Positions 2,673 through 31,045 of a stretch of DNA of 64,000 nt are shown here, piece after piece (position 1 is the first letter of the stretch; every line of letters starts with the position of its first letter). The notes below the pieces were generated by a model. The model saw nothing but the letters and a program-made list of their open reading frames with translations. It was not told the DNA's origin and did no database searches. Source of the stretch: Acidobacteriota bacterium (lineage in GTDB: Bacteria; Acidobacteriota; UBA890; WLXD01). The position numbers and the translations under genes are program-made. Location of the stretch: NCBI GenBank assembly GCA_965205505.1, contig CBDBHB010000009.1, positions 1,760,001 through 1,824,000 of the forward strand, given 5' to 3'.

Positions 2673-3143
2673 TTGGATACGCTATTAGTTTTTGTTCTGC
2701 AGTTCGCCCTGAGCGTTCTTGTCTACGCTCTCATAGCGAAGTGGTATGTGACGCCATGGCTCGCGGAGACACCAACCCATCAGGCGCTGATGGTGCTGAT
2801 CCTTCCCCACGCGTTTCGGCATGTGGGGCTGGCGTTCTTGGTCCCAGGGTTGGTCGCCCAGCCCCTGCCGAGCTCTTTCGCCACCCCAGCTGCCTACGGG
2901 GACTTCGTCACCGGCCTGCTCGCACTGCTGTCACTGGTGGCTCTGCGAGGACGTTGGGGCCTGGCGCTCCCGTTGGTTTGGCTCTTCAACACTATCGGCA
3001 CGGTCGACCTTCTAAACGCACTCCGCCAAGCGGAGGCGGTACCGTACTTGCTGACCACTTGGTACATCCCGACATTTCTGGTCCCACTGCTGCTGGTGAC
3101 TCACTTCATGATCTTTACCCGCCTGATCAGACGCGGGACGTGA
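2673..3143 (+). CDS. hypothetical membrane protein
   Basis: GGAGG RBS, TTG start, several hydrophobic helices, PHAFRHVGL motif. Confidence 0.75.
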   Translation: MDTLLVFVLQFALSVLVYALIAKWYVTPWLAETPTHQALMVLILPHAFRHVGLAFLVPGLVAQPLPSSFATPAAYGDFVTGLLALLSLVALRGRWGLALPLVWLFNTIGTVDLLNALRQAEAVPYLLTTWYIPTFLVPLLLVTHFMIFTRLIRRGT

Positions 3144-3150
3144 GGGGTCG

Positions 3151-3555
3151 ATGAGAGCGATGTTCAATTTCCTACTGGCCATGCTGAGAATGCGCAAGCC
3201 TGCGGTGGCCTGGATCATGCTGCTGATGCTCGTCAACATGGTCATTCCTCTCTTCTACCTGGGGACTCCGGAAGGTAGGACAGTCTTGGGAGCCTTCGTG
3301 TTTGGGGCACTCCTTCAAGGGTGGATTTTCTCTGCGAAGGGTTTCGTTCGCCTGCTGGGGATTGGACACATCGTCTGGGTCCCGATGGTGGTCTGGCTGT
3401 GGGCACGGCTGGAGGTCGCCCCTGCCAGCGGTTTCTTCAGGTACTGGCTGCTCGCGACCATCGCGTTGGTGAGCCTGTCTCTCCTTATCGACGCCGTCGA
3501 CATCACGCGCTATCTGAGAGGTGAGCGGGACCCTTATGTCGAGATTCCGGCCTGA
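3151..3555 (+). CDS. hypothetical membrane protein
   Basis: about 4 TM segments, GFVRLLGIGH motif, closely follows the upstream gene. Confidence 0.75.
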   Translation: MRAMFNFLLAMLRMRKPAVAWIMLLMLVNMVIPLFYLGTPEGRTVLGAFVFGALLQGWIFSAKGFVRLLGIGHIVWVPMVVWLWARLEVAPASGFFRYWLLATIALVSLSLLIDAVDITRYLRGERDPYVEIPA

Positions 3556-3807
3556 CACCAAGATATCCCGCTCGGAATGATGCCCTGGACGAGGCGCAAT
3601 CAAGGTCCCGGGCTCATGGGCCACCGATCTACGGCGCGATCTTGGACGGCGCATACGCCAGGCACAGCCGCACTTCCGCGGCCTGAAGTAGGGTGCCCAC
3701 GGCGGCCCCGAGGACATGCTGTGACTAACGGGCAATGACTAAGCCACGCCGAGCACCCCTCGCTGGCAACACGCGAATCGTGGCTCAACGACCAAGGAAG
3801 CTGCACT

Positions 3808-4269
3808 ATGGCCAACATCACCGCTCTACTCGGCGAAGGCACCCAGGTAGAACTACAGGCTCGTGAATTTACCTGGCGGGGGGATGAGCCCGCCGCCGCT
3901 GGTGGCACGGACACCGGACCAACGCCCTACGAGATTCTGCTTGGCAGCCTGGCGGCATGTATTGCCATCACACTCAGGCTCTACGCGAACCACAAAGGGA
4001 TCGACCTCGTTGGGGTCGACGTCAGGCTCGAGTTCGATCGGGTGCATGCCGACGATTGCGCGGACTGCGACTCGCGGAAGGACGGCTGGATCGACCGCAT
4101 CCGAAGCCAGGTGACGATTCAAGGCACCTTCGACGATGCGCAGCGAACCCGGCTTGCGCAGGTGGCCGCGCGCTGCCCGGTGCACAAGACCCTGGCTAAC
4201 GGGGTAGAGATCGTCGATTCGGTAGCGTTCGAGGGCGCGCTGGAGCGAGGGGCAAGTTCTCTTGGTTGA
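3808..4269 (+). CDS. OsmC/YhfA-family protein
   Basis: DEP..GGTDTGPTPYEILLGSLAAC, RCPVHKTL. Confidence 0.9.
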   Translation: MANITALLGEGTQVELQAREFTWRGDEPAAAGGTDTGPTPYEILLGSLAACIAITLRLYANHKGIDLVGVDVRLEFDRVHADDCADCDSRKDGWIDRIRSQVTIQGTFDDAQRTRLAQVAARCPVHKTLANGVEIVDSVAFEGALERGASSLG

Positions 4270-4331
4270 GTTGACAGTGCGTGTCAGAGGGATCAACACA
4301 AATAGTCGGACCCAAGGAACAGGAGCGTATC

Positions 4332-5147
4332 GTGTCCAAAGAGAGTCTGAATGCCGTAGTGACCCAGAGGATCGAGATGTCACCCGAACTGGTTCTGTTC
4401 CGGGTGGCTCCGGATGGCTGGGAGTTGCCGTTGTTCGAGGCCGGACAGTTCGCTGTCCTTGGGCTGCCGGGGAAGTCGGCACGCATCATCTGGTCGGATC
4501 CGGAAGAGAAGCCGCCTGAACCAGAGCGGCTGATTCGTCGAGCCTATTCGCTTGCTTCTTCATCGGCGTCGAGCGAATACCTGGAGTTCTACATTATGAT
4601 CGTCCGTTCCGGACGGCTGACTCCCAGGTTGTTTTCGCTGGAGCAAAGAGATCGCGTTTGGCTGGGGCAGAAAATTGCCGGGATGTTCACCCTGGAGGAT
4701 GTGCCAGAGGACAAAAACATCGTGCTGATCTCCACTGGGACGGGATTGGCACCTTATGTCAGCATGCTGCGTAGCCATCTGGTTTGTGGAAGCCAGCAGC
4801 GCTTCGCGGTGCTTCACGGAGCTCGACACTCCTGGGACCTGGGATACCGGGCAGAGCTCAGCACCATGCACCGGCTCTGCGACAACTTTGACTACTTCCC
4901 TTTGGTCAGTCGTCCGGATGAAGAGCCGGTGCCGTGGCAGGGCGCGACGGGATACGTCCAGGACCTCTGGACCGGAGGGGTCCTTGAAGAGGCCTGGAAC
5001 AGCCGGCCGACACGAGCCGACGCTCACGTGTTCCTCTGCGGAAACCCACGAATGTGCGAGCAAATGGTCACACAGTTGAAGACAGAGGGATTTAGGGAGC
5101 ACACCCGTAAAGAGGCGGGCGAGATTCACGTCGAGCGCTATTGGTAG
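4332..5147 (+). CDS. fpr: ferredoxin/flavodoxin-NADP+ reductase
   Basis: RAYS, STGTGLAPY, FLCGNP, C-terminal ERYW; AGGAG RBS before the GTG at 4332. Confidence 0.85.
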   Translation: MSKESLNAVVTQRIEMSPELVLFRVAPDGWELPLFEAGQFAVLGLPGKSARIIWSDPEEKPPEPERLIRRAYSLASSSASSEYLEFYIMIVRSGRLTPRLFSLEQRDRVWLGQKIAGMFTLEDVPEDKNIVLISTGTGLAPYVSMLRSHLVCGSQQRFAVLHGARHSWDLGYRAELSTMHRLCDNFDYFPLVSRPDEEPVPWQGATGYVQDLWTGGVLEEAWNSRPTRADAHVFLCGNPRMCEQMVTQLKTEGFREHTRKEAGEIHVERYW

Positions 5148-22563: not shown

Positions 22564-22875
22564 ATCACGGCAACTGTCTCCGGGAGATCTCGCTCTTGCC
22601 AGTTGAAGTACTTGTGGGCGCCTCTTTATCTGCGGTGTCAGTTTCCGCCGTCCGCATAACGTACCTGCTAACACGGTACTGTCGAGTTAACCGGCAGCGT
22701 AGCAGGGGCGCTCGAGTCAATGCGGCGAGAGCGCTGGTGCATCACACGACCGTGCGAGAGGGGAGAGAGGCCAGTGAGCGAGTGCCCGATCCTGGACGCC
22801 ATCGGACGAGGTGGGTCGTTCGGAGGCTGCGCCGCGGCGGAAAGGCAGCGGAACAGCTTGAACGGCAACGCGATC

Positions 22876-23800
22876 ATGTCACGACCGGCAATGTACGCAT
22901 TGATGGCGCTGACCCTTGTTTGGCCGGGGGAGGCGAGCGCCCAGATCTTCTGGCCTGGGGCGCGAGCGGAGTTCATCTCCGGATTCGGCATCCGCACCGT
23001 GGCGAGCTTCCTGCAGGCCAACGACATGCTGAGCGGCAGGACGCAGGTCCCCGACCCTCTAGGGCGTAGGTTCAAAGCACAGACGGTCTCGATGGCCGTG
23101 GTCTACGGGTTGCACCGAAAGGTCAGCTTGATCGGCGTATTCCCGTTACTCGACTAAGGAGATGCGAATCGACAGCCCGACCGGCGCAGAGCGTCTTGGC
23201 GCCGGCCTGCGCTTCGGCGACGCGACCTTCCTGGTCAAGTGGCGCCTCCTGAAGAGGGATCGCGGCAGAGGAGGAGTCCAGCTGTCGTTTCAGGGTGGTG
23301 TCAAGACTCCGACGGGTCGCGACGACGCACCCGATTCATCGAACGGGCAGTTGTTGTCGCCGCCGCTTCAACGTGGGACTGGATCGTGGGACCCGACCGC
23401 CGATTTCATCACCAGCTACGTGACCCCTTCCGCCCGCTGGTTTTTCACTGCCAGTGTCGGTGCCTCGCTCAGCACGGAGGGCAACGATTTCAAGCCTGGC
23501 GACCGGTTCCGCTACGATGCGATGGTCAAGACACGGATCTCGTCATTGCGCTCCCGCGACCTCTTCTTGCTGCTGGAGCTCAACGGTCGTTGGCAGGGGC
23601 GCTGGCGCGCTGGCGACGAGGAAATCGACAGTTCCGGCGGAACCCTCCTGTACCTTTCCCCTGGAGTCCAGTACCTGCCGCGTCCCAACCTCGTCGTCGA
23701 GGCCGGCGTGCAGCTCCCCGCTGTTCGCTACCTCAACGGCACGCAGTTGGCGCCGAGTATCAACCTGCTATTCGGGCTGCGCTACATCATCCTTCCGTGA
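22876..23800 (+). CDS. outer-membrane beta-barrel transporter-like protein (MetA/phenol-degradation-like), +1 frameshift near 23155
   Basis: signal peptide; GD....KWR, GVKTPTG, QRGTGSWD, SGG..LYLSPGVQY, C-terminal FGLRY; removing one T in GACTAAGGAG joins both ORFs. Confidence 0.7.
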
Positions 23801-23832
23801 AGGACAGACGTCTCGATTCAAGGAGTGTCGAT

Positions 23833-24390
23833 ATGAGCTATCAAACCGAAAGTCGGAGTTTCCTTGCCGTCGGCGTCGTGCTGCTCTGCGCGATGCTCGT
23901 CGCCACGCCTGCCGCCGCCCAGGTCATCAAGGCGGAGGTCGGTGTCGACGGCATGACGTGAGGGCTGTGAGCCTACGGGATCAATCGATCCCTACAACGC
24001 CTGGAAGGCGTTGCCGACACGAAGGAAGACCTGGAGCGAAGGCTGATCACCGTGACCTTCGTGCCCGACGCGAAGTTCGATCCCTCGGAGCTCGAAGCGA
24101 GCGTGACCGCGATCGATTTCACGCCGACTGGCGTGACGGTTTGGCTGCGGGGTACTGCGGACACGAATGATCTGCCGGCGATCGCCACGAACCAGACGGC
24201 AGCGTGGCTAGTGAACGAGAGCAGTGGGCAGCGGTTCTTGCTCGTCGCCGCCGATGAGCCAGGCAGGGAGGCACTTGCAGCGTTCAAGGTCGCACCGCCC
24301 GGGTCGGTGACGCTCTACGGTCGAGCCACCCGAGCCGACGACAAGGCCCCGGTCAGCGTACAGGTAGAAGGGAGCAGCAGCGACGAATGA
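23833..24390 (+). CDS. probable exported HMA-domain selenoprotein with UxxU (TGA 23959-61 and 23968-70)
   Basis: AGGAG RBS, signal peptide ending PAAA, VGVDGMT-TGA-GL-TGA-AYGINRSLQRLEGV..ITVTF in one frame continuing to the stop at 24390; 185 aa. Confidence 0.85.
23977..24013 (+). promoter_or_regulatory. tandem hairpins, candidate SECIS element(s)
   Basis: GGGATC-AATC-GATCCC (23977-92) and CAACGCCT-GGA-AGGCGTTG (23995-24013). Confidence 0.55.
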
Positions 24391-25400
24391 GGCCTTCGCG
24401 CTCGGCGCGTTTGGTGATTGCTGCCGGGGTCCTGACGGGTTCCGTCGGCACGCTCGGCCAGGCGCTCGTCGGCACGCTCGAGCTCGAGGCCGAGTGGACA
24501 GAAGCCGGCCCCGAGGGTAGCTCCCTCGATCACCCCATGGGCATTGCTGTCGGCGCGTCGGGGCGGGTGATGGTCGCCGACGGTGCCTCGCGGATCGTCG
24601 TTTACGACGCCGACGGCACGCCGATCGACCAATGGCCGTTGCCCGCGGGAACGCGGCCGGTCGGCGTGGCGGAACGTCCCGACGGGACGATCTTGGTGAC
24701 CGACTACACCGGCGATCGCCTGCTACTGCTCGACCGCGACGGCGAGCTGCTCGAGGTATGGGGAGGACGAGGAACCGGTGCCGGTCAGTTCCAGGCTCCC
24801 AGCGGCGTGGCGGTCACGCCGACGGGTAACGTCGTCGTCGTGGAGTTCATGGGCCAGCGCGTCCAGGAGCTCGACGCCAAGGGCAATTTCATCCGCTTCA
24901 TCGACGGCGGCGACTCCGCTCGACTCTACGCTCAGAACCGCCCGTCGGTCCCCGGGATGGAGGAGACGAAGATGTCGATGACAGCCACACTGGGCGATCC
25001 CCACGACCTGTTCGTCTTCCCCAGCGACGCTGCCGTCGGCCCGGACGACACGCTCTATGTCAGCAACACCCACGCCTACGAGATCCTCGTGTTCGAGCCC
25101 GACCGCACCCTTCGCGAGGCCTGGGGACGCAAGGGAGCGGAGGCCGGCGAGTGGGAAGTTCCCGTAGGCCTCGCAACCGACGCGGAGGGCAATCTGTTCG
25201 TCGCCGACAGCGCCAACTTTCGAGTCCAGGGCCTCGACCCGGCCGGCCAAGTCTTTCTCGTGTCCCGGGCCGACGAGCGCTGGTACCGCAGCACGCGGCG
25301 CATCTACTCGCCCGCCGACATCGATGTCGATTCCGAAGGCCGCCTCTACGTCGCCGATTTCGCCGCCTCCCGGGTGCAGCGTTTCGCCAGAGGTTCCTGA
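24387..25400 (+). CDS. exported NHL-repeat beta-propeller protein
   Basis: repeats HPMGIAV, APSGVAV, VPVGLATD..GNLFVADSANFRVQ; ATGA-coupled to the HMA gene. Confidence 0.85.
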   Translation: MRPSRSARLVIAAGVLTGSVGTLGQALVGTLELEAEWTEAGPEGSSLDHPMGIAVGASGRVMVADGASRIVVYDADGTPIDQWPLPAGTRPVGVAERPDGTILVTDYTGDRLLLLDRDGELLEVWGGRGTGAGQFQAPSGVAVTPTGNVVVVEFMGQRVQELDAKGNFIRFIDGGDSARLYAQNRPSVPGMEETKMSMTATLGDPHDLFVFPSDAAVGPDDTLYVSNTHAYEILVFEPDRTLREAWGRKGAEAGEWEVPVGLATDAEGNLFVADSANFRVQGLDPAGQVFLVSRADERWYRSTRRIYSPADIDVDSEGRLYVADFAASRVQRFARGS

Positions 25401-28987: not shown

Positions 28988-30919
28988 TCAACGGAAATCG
29001 GGCTCGTAGGCGACTTCGAGTGCCTGGTATTCGGTCCACAGCTGCGCCGCCCGGCGCCAATCGTTGGCGTTGATTGACGCACGAATATCGTCGAGGCGGT
29101 CGGCGAGCTCGAAGACCTTGGGTGCATGTGCCAGATTCTCGAGCGCCGAGGCGTCGAGCCTCAAGTCGGCGGCTACGGTGCGCAGCATGAGGTCGGCGTG
29201 CTCGGCATCGTGCGCTGGAATGAGGGTAGACAGCGTCGAGGTAAACGTCGACAGCGCACCCCAGAACAACTGGAACAGCGTGTTGTCCTCGTCGAACACC
29301 TCGTACGGGTCCGCCCCTTCGCCCATCGTCTCGAGGTAGGTCGTCAAGTCGGACTGTTGGCTGTCGTCGAGGCCGAGGTCGAACTGATCGTCGAACCAAT
29401 CGACAACCTCGACGAGAGTCGCCACGGCGCCGTCGTGGAAGTACGGCGCGGTGTGCATCACGCCGATCAACGTCGGCGTGTCGAAGAACGTGTCCCGAGC
29501 GCCCGGACTCGACCGGTCGCCACTACCGATGTCGTGCCGCCGGCCGTCGAGGAAATTGTTGCTCGGCACGTGACAGGTGCTGCAGGCACGTCCGCCCATG
29601 CCGTCGAACGAGCGATTGAACAGTGCCTCACCGCGCCGGGCGGAGTCGGAAGCGGCGTCGTTGAGTCGGCCGTCGGGCTGTAGGTAAGGTGCCGGCAGCC
29701 AATCGAACTCGAGCATGTAGGCGACCAGAGCATCGAGCATCATCGGCGAGGGTTCCTCGCCGGCAAACTCGTTGACCACAACGTTTCGGGTGAAGTCACG
29801 GAGGCTCGCGAAACGGCCGTCGCGGCCATAGGGCGCCGTGAACCGGAGGCCGCGCAAGCTCGGGATGTCGAGCGCGTCGGCCCGGCGATCGTTGAAGCGC
29901 GGATTGAAGTAGTGCCCGTCGACGTCGACGTTTCCGGGGCGCGTGCTGATCCCTGGGATGAAGAACCGTTGGTTGATGTCGCTACGGTTGTGGCAGCGCG
30001 AGCACGAGAGGTCGAGGCTGAGCGCCGGCTCACCGAAGATCTGCGGCGAGTCGAAGAGCATGTCTCCGTAGGTCACCAGGAACAGATCCTTCTCGTCGGC
30101 GCCGCGCTCCTCGAAGTTCAGCACCAGGCGGGGCAGAGGATCTTGGTCGTTGAGGTCGGTGGCCGGTGGCAACCACGGCGCCACTCCGGCCCTCGACATG
30201 CGACCGACCGCCGGAACCGGGTCGAAGTGTGTCATGCTCGGCCCGCCGTCGCCCTCGTAGTTGGCGGTGAGGTAGGCCTCGACGGCCTCGACGGCGCTGG
30301 CGAAACGCTCCCTGTCGGCCGCCTGGACGCCGCGGCTCTCGACCCCTGCCGAGCCCACCGTTGTCGTCAGCTCGAGCCACGCGCGGCCCAGGTCTCGAGC
30401 ACCCTGCGAGTCGGTGGCACGCACGAATCGGTCGAATGCACGATACATCCGGCTGGCCTGATGCACCTCCTCGAGGGCTGCCCCTGGCGTGCCGAGATTT
30501 GCCAGCGCGCGCCGCAGATGCAACCGTACGAGTTGCGACACCGCGCGCGTGGCCGAAGCCGACAACGACTCGGCATCGGAGGCCGCAATGGCGTTGCGGA
30601 TCATTGCCGTGTGGTCGGTCCCGTCGAGCTCTGTGGCCAGCGCGATGGCGTCGTAGACCGAGTCGAGGTGCCAACCGTCTTCACGCACGCCCTCATATTC
30701 GGACCGGACGAGTGTCCAATCCACCGGCTGGAGCTTGAGGTAGAACAGGCTGCGCAGATACGCCGCCGGAACCGGGTGCCAGGGTTCCTCGCGGATGATG
30801 TGGGATCGGCCCGTCAACGGGAGCAGAAAGAGTGTTCCCAGAACGAGTGTCGCCAGCCGGGCGAGGCGACGGTGTCGACGGGTCGGGGCCAAGGTTGCCA
30901 CAGGGGTCCCGAAGTTCAT
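28988..30919 (-). CDS. exported di-heme cytochrome c peroxidase/MauG-like protein with a long N-terminal extension
   Basis: CSRCH and CSTCH heme motifs, PSLRGLRFTAPY.RDG, TPTL...HTAPYFHDG. Confidence 0.8.
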   Translation of the reverse strand: MNFGTPVATLAPTRRHRRLARLATLVLGTLFLLPLTGRSHIIREEPWHPVPAAYLRSLFYLKLQPVDWTLVRSEYEGVREDGWHLDSVYDAIALATELDGTDHTAMIRNAIAASDAESLSASATRAVSQLVRLHLRRALANLGTPGAALEEVHQASRMYRAFDRFVRATDSQGARDLGRAWLELTTTVGSAGVESRGVQAADRERFASAVEAVEAYLTANYEGDGGPSMTHFDPVPAVGRMSRAGVAPWLPPATDLNDQDPLPRLVLNFEERGADEKDLFLVTYGDMLFDSPQIFGEPALSLDLSCSRCHNRSDINQRFFIPGISTRPGNVDVDGHYFNPRFNDRRADALDIPSLRGLRFTAPYGRDGRFASLRDFTRNVVVNEFAGEEPSPMMLDALVAYMLEFDWLPAPYLQPDGRLNDAASDSARRGEALFNRSFDGMGGRACSTCHVPSNNFLDGRRHDIGSGDRSSPGARDTFFDTPTLIGVMHTAPYFHDGAVATLVEVVDWFDDQFDLGLDDSQQSDLTTYLETMGEGADPYEVFDEDNTLFQLFWGALSTFTSTLSTLIPAHDAEHADLMLRTVAADLRLDASALENLAHAPKVFELADRLDDIRASINANDWRRAAQLWTEYQALEVAYEPDFR

Positions 30920-31045
30920 CACTTCCTCGCTACCAGCGGATGGCGGTTCCAACGCCGACGAAGAAATCGTCGGCGCGATCATCGAGCCCTGGAGCGTCGT
31001 CGCTGCGAAAGTTAGGCAAGGCTAAAGATTGTAGTTTAGCCACAC

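Follow-up and report, generated by a model that had tools for sequence, protein, structure and literature searches.

A predicted exported HMA-domain protein of Acidobacteriota with two in-frame UGA codons at its metal-ligand positions and two conserved RNA hairpins downstream

How is a bacterial gene to be read when two in-frame TGA codons fall exactly where a metal-binding protein would carry its two ligand cysteines? The question is posed by positions 23833-24390 of a 64,000-nucleotide stretch of DNA from an Acidobacteriota bacterium (GenBank assembly GCA_965205505.1, contig CBDBHB010000009.1, positions 1,760,001 to 1,824,000 of the forward strand), referred to here as the window; coordinates are those of the window, and its features lie on the forward (+) strand unless marked otherwise. 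An initial annotation, made from the letters alone, had proposed that both TGAs encode selenocysteine (Sec) in an exported HMA-domain protein. We consider it very probable that 23833-24390 is one functional gene, encoding an exported two-domain HMA protein with Sec at both UGAs and a soft-metal diselenolate site, and this protein most likely represents an uncatalogued family.

The coding sequence begins with the ATG at 23833, 7 nt downstream of a Shine-Dalgarno-like AAGGAG (23820-23825) that was read directly, and the ATGs of the orthologues described below are likewise preceded by GGAG-type sites. Beyond the leader the in-frame codons run GAC GGC ATG ACG TGA GGG CTG TGA GCC TAC, with the two TGAs at 23959-23961 and 23968-23970; the frame stays open past both of them up to the TGA at 24388-24390, which overlaps the ATG of the next open reading frame (ORF; ATG at 24387-24389) as ATGA, and the full-length product is 185 aa. 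The ribosome-binding site, start codon, in-frame TGAs, open frame, and ATGA coupling are all as the initial annotation had read them. With U for TGA the HMA motif reads G-M-T-U-G-L-U, placing the predicted Sec residues U43 and U46 at the first and second metal-ligand positions, as judged from alignment with homologues and from Logan contigs. TGA as a genome-wide sense codon was considered and ruled out, as TGA terminates this gene and the neighboring ORFs (table 11). A regular-expression scan of the whole genome for HMA-type TGA motifs gave 17 raw matches, of which only the 23833-24390 gene was HMA-like.

When 41 related genomes were searched at the protein level with read-through, the orthologue turned up in three others, at 83%, 66%, and 45% identity (BLAST) and with exactly two in-frame TGAs in each, so that four of these genomes, that of the window included, carry the pair. 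The TGA positions are identical (GMT-U-GL-U-AYG and GMY-U-GL-U-AYG), the orthologues are 185 to 187 aa long, and their alignment identity to the window protein is 84% and 43 to 44%; more distant homologues, in G020 and G014, have no TGA and read C-P-F-C. Across 401 genomes from the phylum, a profile search listed 83 matches in 64 genomes, which by hand count comprise 20 rows (20 genomes) with two TGAs, 12 with one, and 51 with none, and in the 13 two-TGA genomes in which the motif position was inspected, both TGAs fell on the Cys positions in every case (13/13). An exact TGA-specific DNA pattern matched 23 metagenome contigs in addition. TGA-bearing members were thus sought in one phylum sample and with one exact DNA pattern, and after removal of duplicates and of contig L141, which the motif filter had not returned, 31 distinct Sec-type sequences were obtained, 13 from Acidobacteriota genomes and 18 from metagenome contigs. 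Their motifs read UGLU, UPLU, USLU, UALU, or UNFU, their frames contain no other stops, and in the alignment both TGAs occupy the columns that are invariably Cys in the Cys-type homologues. The argument that two nonsense changes would not by chance strike just these codons is borne out by the recurrence of TGA-x-x-TGA in 31 distinct sequences.

The frame downstream of the TGAs is under purifying selection. After UGA2, omega was 0.26, 0.31, 0.30, and 0.23 in four closer pairs (dS 0.29 to 1.18), and 0.45 to 0.67 in three distant pairs for which dS is near saturation; the relaxed selection named beforehand as an outcome that would count against Sec was not what the closer pairs showed. Sequencing error at the TGAs was likewise addressed with assembled public reads: Logan contigs spanned the whole stretch in four runs of four studies (X1, X4, X5, and X8). 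The X1 contig is identical there and may be the source, and the contigs of X4, X5, and X8, from three other studies, differ at 2 to 4 positions, none within either TGA. Run X8 also yielded many additional short contigs stacked solely on 23964-24038, which shows that, among relatives, the DNA of the gene is best conserved here.

To place the Sec-type sequences, we also scanned contigs with patterns back-translated from alignment A1; these used TGY for Cys and hence returned only Cys-type relatives, 243 of them confirmed and 80 kept, from many phyla. A quick tree was built from 118 complete family rows (85 CxxC, 28 UxxU, and 5 UxxC), leaving out incomplete ORFs, tails outside 60 to 200 aa, and 9 duplicates. 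All but one of the 28 UxxU rows cluster, separate from a block of 80 CxxC rows of the CP[FY]C type; the well-supported branches do not require more than one origin of UxxU, and the window protein lies within a 19-row UGLU clade with 100% support in the Shimodaira-Hasegawa-like approximate likelihood ratio test (SH-aLRT). Another two-domain branch, represented by L132 and L133 (G124 and G371), carries G-M-D-U-A-V-C, a UxxC motif, with one CGUGN-loop hairpin 17 nt after its UGA, so the family holds CxxC, UxxC, and UxxU forms, the three kinds of homologue that the initial annotation had suggested looking for; no CxxU form was seen among the family rows examined.

The predicted protein is built from a leader and two domains. 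Residues 1-29 (23833-23919) form a predicted signal peptide of the Sec secretory type, assigned by eye with cleavage after A-A-A (AAA|Q); the AlphaFold2 model places a helix at residues 7-21 of this leader, with lower values of the predicted local distance difference test (pLDDT), and a hydrophobic N terminus is present in 39/39 aligned family members. The HMA domain, residues 30-106 (23920-24150), is supported by Pfam, AlphaFold2, and Foldseek. With U read as C, Pfam HMA (PF00403) matches residues 38-93 at 38.4 bits (cut-off 24.8; E 1.7e-9), which together with the alignment to Cys-type homologues upholds the initial placement of both TGAs on the Cys positions of GMTCxxC. The AlphaFold2 model, from a 39-row alignment, has pLDDT 90.2 and a predicted template modeling score (pTM) of 0.81 overall, and pLDDT 95 to 98 across blocks 31-110; its HMA elements (E30-39, H44-55, E60-66, E71-76, H84-92, and E97-106) follow the ferredoxin-like beta-alpha-beta-beta-alpha-beta order, with U43 and U46 at the beta1-alpha1 junction, in the loop and helix start. 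Foldseek returned CopZ 6ff2 (TMt 0.90), MerP 1osd (0.78), ATP7B 6a71 (0.81 to 0.82), and CCS domains, and every neighbor listed is a metal-binding HMA domain or a protein containing one. Residues 107-185 (24151-24387) form a C-terminal domain predicted as beta-beta-alpha-beta-beta by AlphaFold2 (10-residue block means 78 to 96); it is conserved in the Cys-type members and gave no structural match in the whole-model Foldseek search, which the HMA domain dominated. Near the end of this domain, most CPFC members aligned in alignment A3 have H-x-G-H-P, which is missing from the Sec-type clade and could be a second metal site of the Cys-type members.

Directly downstream of the TGAs the RNA is predicted to fold into two hairpins. 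Hairpin 1 (23977-23992) has a 6-bp stem, GGGAUC/GAUCCC, and the loop AAUC (-8.4 kcal/mol), its loop starting 21 nt after UGA1 and 12 nt after UGA2; hairpin 2 (23995-24013), which resembles a selenocysteine insertion sequence (SECIS), has a 7-bp stem, CAACGCC/GGCGUUG, and the loop UGGAA with G at position 2 (-10.5 kcal/mol), its loop starting 31 nt after UGA2 and 40 nt after UGA1. The two-hairpin fold is found in 31/31 Sec-type sequences, averaging -20.4 kcal/mol over 43 nt, whereas 11 CxxC homologues had a mean of -8.6, three UxxC rows being omitted from that mean, and shared no fold. In the ungapped alignment A2 (31 rows, 28 distinct), 98.5% of hairpin 2 cells are paired, with CG<->GC exchanges in 3 rows, AU<->GC in 4, and AU<->GU in 12, and with three of its seven pairs invariant; for hairpin 1, 86.3% of cells are paired in the register of the window, with two-sided changes in four of six pairs, and in deeper clades the register is shifted by one base. 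Over both hairpins 92.9% of cells are paired, versus 30 to 48% with slid partners, six pairs have two-sided changes, and the covariation score was matched by 0/500 shuffles. Because relatedness alone can lift sequences above their shuffles, and because the stretch also encodes conserved protein, most weight falls on the slid controls and on the contrast with Cys-type genes. A small hairpin around UGA2 itself, GGGCU-GUG-AGCCU, was also considered and ruled out as nonconserved, since one stem base is altered in L116/L019.

These hairpins were compared with the bacterial SECIS consensus given in the legend to Fig. 2 of PMC13188914, under which the loop has 3 to 9 nt with a G as its first or second base, the stem has 4 bp or more, the UGA is 16 to 37 nt away, and the minimum free energy is at most -7.5. 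UGA2 with hairpin 2 agrees with it fully (31 nt, 7 bp, UGGAA, -10.5). For UGA1 with hairpin 1, the spacing (21 nt), stem (6 bp), and energy (-8.4) fit and the loop AAUC has no G; in deeper clades, by contrast with that of the window, a G stands at loop position 1 or 2 of hairpin 1 in 9/10 sequences, the folds being read by eye. Six single-Sec (UxxC) HMA relatives share one hairpin of 5 to 7 bp with the loop CGUGA/CGUGC, 17 nt after the UGA, as read by eye; minimum-free-energy folds of 66-nt windows drew it in only 2 to 3 of the six. We propose only tentatively, and with more doubt than confidence, that the gene carries tandem SECIS elements, hairpin 1 serving UGA1 and hairpin 2 serving UGA2, in an uncatalogued family of exported diselenolate metal carriers. 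In favor of this, both hairpins covary across the 31 UxxU sequences and are missing from the CxxC genes, each lies inside the 16- to 37-nt range of one UGA only, and the UxxC relatives, with their one UGA, appear to share just one hairpin 17 nt downstream; the missing loop G of hairpin 1 in the window's clade speaks against it. We found no description of tandem bacterial SECIS elements in the literature. If the proposal is true, two SelB-Sec-tRNA complexes could be preloaded on one mRNA, a natural solution for decoding adjacent bacterial Sec codons.

The genome of the window (96% complete, 9 contigs) holds the machinery that Sec insertion would need: tRNA-Sec (68.2 bits, anticodon tca), SelA (432.4 bits, found twice), SelB, and SelD (322.8 bits); the check for selA, selB, selC, and selD suggested with the initial annotation thus turned out favorably. 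The SelA matches, at G000:C6:10616-11695 (+) and C6:191418-192497 (-), have opposite orientation and identical scores (432.4 bits each), and the pair is a large inverted duplication or an assembly repeat. ARAGORN reported 55 tRNAs in this 96%-complete genome. Among them are a single tRNA-SeC(tca) and a single tRNA-Cys(gca), the latter ordinary and 74 nt long, and no further Sec-like tRNA with a long arm; the sole other match above the Rfam tRNA-Sec cut-off is a tRNA-Ser. ARAGORN also drew a 75-nt tRNA (tRNA-???) with a four-base anticodon, "agca", at G000:C9:617574-617648. Across the phylum sample, a strong SelA match accompanies the gene in 18/20 two-TGA genomes.

The gene lies between an outer-membrane barrel gene and a propeller gene. 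Upstream, at 22720-23800, is the gene for a beta-barrel of the outer membrane that belongs to the Phenol_MetA_deg family (23162-23800 matches Pfam PF13557 at 39.8 bits); in the window this gene is split by an extra T at about 23155, with TAA at 23155-23157, a +1 shift, and a restart at ATG 23162. The insertion site reads CGACTAAGG in the window and CGAC-AAGG in four orthologues (L112, L113, L144, and L158), in which the extra T is absent and the barrel is in one frame; the contigs of X4, X5, and X8 also do without it, and only X1, the probable source, has it. The break is therefore either a strain-private frameshift or a source-specific error. Downstream, the overlapping ORF (24387-25400) encodes an NHL-repeat beta-propeller of 337 aa (Pfam NHL, 94.3 bits) with an N-terminal hydrophobic leader of its own. 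Genomes and metagenome contigs alike show the barrel/HMA/NHL module again, with its gene order varying, around Sec-type as well as Cys-type genes. The wider flanks in the window are argG/argH on the upstream side and, on the downstream side, unrelated genes for ABC transport and di-haem peroxidase; the downstream genes include, at 28988-30982 (-), a 664-aa protein with di-haem cytochrome c peroxidase/RoxA-like domains, which is unrelated to the HMA gene and adjoins a phosphonate-type binding protein and an ABC ATPase.

In contig L156 the module stands back to back with a divergent soft-metal island (2706-4452) comprising a MerR-family regulator, a zf_CopZ/BFD-like protein, a U-G-G-C HMA lipoprotein, and a MerT-like membrane protein, the last at 27.2 bits, under its cut-off of 32.9. 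The lipoprotein is a predicted single-Sec MerP-like selenoprotein with one hairpin 17 nt after its UGA, and its gene is also found nearby in L155 and L115. The first table-11 start codon of the MerT-like protein comes after its first CC-bearing hydrophobic stretch. At another locus, L126:1552-3222 (G398), the frame of the two-domain UxxU HMA protein continues without a stop into a region of about 400 aa with a weak BNR-repeat match (30.9 bits, just below cut-off); here the carrier may be naturally fused to a beta-propeller-like domain.

HMA domains with Sec, including ones with two, are already known from catalogued proteins. The NF041115 "UxxU_metal_bind" protein is listed as "putative mercuric reductase, UxxU, 2 Sec", and UxxC cation-transporting ATPases, MerT-type, and other metal-related selenoproteins are listed as well (PMC9312934, PMC13188914); a table of the Global Ocean Sampling (GOS) survey has a "MerP" selenoprotein with 2 sequences (PMC2398784). 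The double-Sec HMA site of the initial annotation is supported and at the same time is not without precedent. NF041115 likewise has an HMA-type domain in which both ligand Cys are replaced by Sec (UxxU), by prediction only, but its model is a single domain of 74 positions, whereas the window protein has 185 aa, a signal peptide, an extra domain of about 80 aa, and a barrel/NHL context. The window protein scores 33.8 bits with this model against a cut-off of 95, no better than with MerP or CopZ models, six other family members score 31.5 to 49.8, and the phylum sample of 401 genomes holds no match at or above the cut-off; judged by these scores, the window protein is not a member of NF041115. 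No NCBIfam model (release June 2026) reaches its cut-off with the window protein.

Other known systems share parts of this design. MerP (TIGR02052), the periplasmic Hg(II) protein of mer operons, is likewise an exported HMA protein with a GMTCxxC-type loop, represented by the 1osd match, from which the window protein differs in its score (34.0 bits, cut-off 92.55), its extra C-terminal domain, and Sec at both ligands; merT, merA, and merR are not found in the window. The CopZ/Atx1 chaperones and the N-terminal HMA domains of P1B ATPases have the fold and ligand positions in common with it but are cytoplasmic, single-domain or pump-fused, and carry Cys or one Sec (including the UxxC cation-transporting ATPase); the NCBIfam CopZ models NF033795, NF033794, and NF047957 gave 32.9, 26.4, and 26.6 bits against cut-offs of 85 to 95. 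UXXU-type Group 4 [NiFeSe] hydrogenases, reported from phyla that include Acidobacteriota, also have two UGAs two codons apart at metal ligands; they are unrelated proteins in which one downstream SECIS may serve both UGAs (PMC13582414), in contrast to the two conserved hairpins here. A further comparison is with the Cys-type members of the family (P0004, P0005, and the 80 CP[FY]C-type tree rows, from many phyla), which share length, signal peptide, HMA and C-terminal domains, and barrel/NHL neighbors with the window protein but have CPFC instead of U-x-L-U, retain H-x-G-H-P, and have no conserved hairpins downstream. We found no description of an exported two-domain UxxU family in the literature, where related sequences may figure among the candidates tabulated in PMC1976440 and in later selenoproteome surveys.

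Could the TGAs simply be stops? The locus would then be a dead or split gene yielding only a 42-aa leader peptide and/or a 112-aa protein from GTG 24052, a reading that fits the public protein sets, which hold only the 104- to 112-aa piece, and the frameshift in the barrel gene upstream. We nevertheless find it barely credible: the 112-aa piece would begin mid-domain, the pieces are predicted jointly to form one HMA fold (pLDDT 95 to 98), both TGAs sit on ligand positions, TGA-x-x-TGA persists without other stops in 31 distinct sequences across 43 to 84% identity, omega downstream is 0.23 to 0.31, and the conserved hairpins occur only in TGA-bearing genes. It is also conceivable that SelB and the same hairpins direct a tRNA-ReC (SelC*) to one or both UGAs, which would be read as Cys or another residue to give CxxC, UxxC, or CxxU. 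This route is raised for UXXU proteins in PMC13582414, which puts at about 56% the share of UXXU-hydrogenase genomes that have tRNA-ReC-like genes, and with no consensus loop G in hairpin 1 of the window's clade, UGA1 might be decoded differently from UGA2; the tRNA complement of the genome, with its one tRNA-SeC(tca), its ordinary tRNA-Cys(gca), no second long-arm Sec-like tRNA among the 55 found (genome 96% complete), and a tRNA-Ser as the sole other match above the Rfam tRNA-Sec cut-off, makes it quite improbable here. A third reading keeps both Sec residues and changes their task, the extracytoplasmic diselenide/diselenol couple serving a redox role instead of metal carriage, for example by reducing or scavenging an oxidant or by handling Se, Te, or S species for the NHL propeller. 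Redox proteins make up the majority of the prokaryotic selenoproteins catalogued with UxxC/CxxU motifs (PMC13188914, PMC9312934), and the loss of H-x-G-H-P from the Sec-type clade hints at a functional shift, but the fold and motif are those of a metal-binding HMA domain rather than of a thioredoxin-like protein, the listed Foldseek neighbors are without exception metal-binding HMA domains or proteins containing one, and relatives adjoin MerR, CopZ-like, and MerT-like genes. We regard a redox role as unlikely, if the least unlikely of the three.

Several observations weigh against the favored reading of a double-Sec metal carrier. Outside the cytoplasm a diselenide would form with great ease, and a simple chaperone model then becomes harder to sustain. 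SelA is found in 309/401 genomes of the phylum, which makes its co-occurrence with the gene uninformative, and among the two-TGA genomes G101 has no SelA match and G317 only a weak one (E 1.4e-8), though both have tRNA-Sec (76.2 and 71.5 bits, respectively) and SelB. The hairpins lie within conserved coding sequence, and part of their invariance may reflect protein constraint; with hairpin 1 lacking the consensus loop G in the window's clade and hairpin 2 lying 40 nt from UGA1, beyond the 16- to 37-nt range, no single hairpin agrees with the consensus for UGA1. The barrel frameshift means that the module may be impaired in the window's strain, and the MerR/MerT-like island of L156 is not present in the window.

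On the double-Sec metal-carrier reading, the SelA/SelB/SelD/tRNA-Sec system of the genome would recode both UGAs as Sec, with the hairpins at 23977-23992 and 23995-24013 as the structured RNA that directs it. Export and signal-peptide cleavage would leave the protein displaying a diselenolate site, or a diselenide when oxidized, presumably in the periplasm, and the diselenolate would bind one of the soft thiophilic metal ions in the Cu(I)/Hg(II)/Ag(I)/Au(I) class. The HMA protein likely works with the co-conserved outer-membrane barrel and NHL beta-propeller.

That gene callers would split or miss such a gene proved correct. In a collection of 5.8 billion proteins, 9 of 11 matches are fragments of 104 to 112 aa, corresponding to the 61% of the protein that follows the TGAs, and these entries are unnamed or called "hypothetical protein"; the C-terminal piece alone also occurs in entries P0008, P0013, and P0039. 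Entry P0166 of the same collection, 177 aa with MerR Pfam domains, has 40% identity. A well-supported selenoprotein family is thus missed entirely by current annotation and is represented in public protein sets only by headless fragments, while its reach extends to 20/401 sampled Acidobacteriota species and 23 metagenome contigs. Sec has a very low pKa, forms diselenides very easily, and has high affinity for soft metals, and the family is predicted to have an extracytoplasmic Sec-Sec metal site; in that location its chemistry should depart most from that of the Cys version, with natural Cys-type sisters available for comparison. It also offers a natural test case for a question put in print in 2026, the decoding of two UGAs two codons apart in bacteria, which the two separable conserved hairpins would make directly testable.

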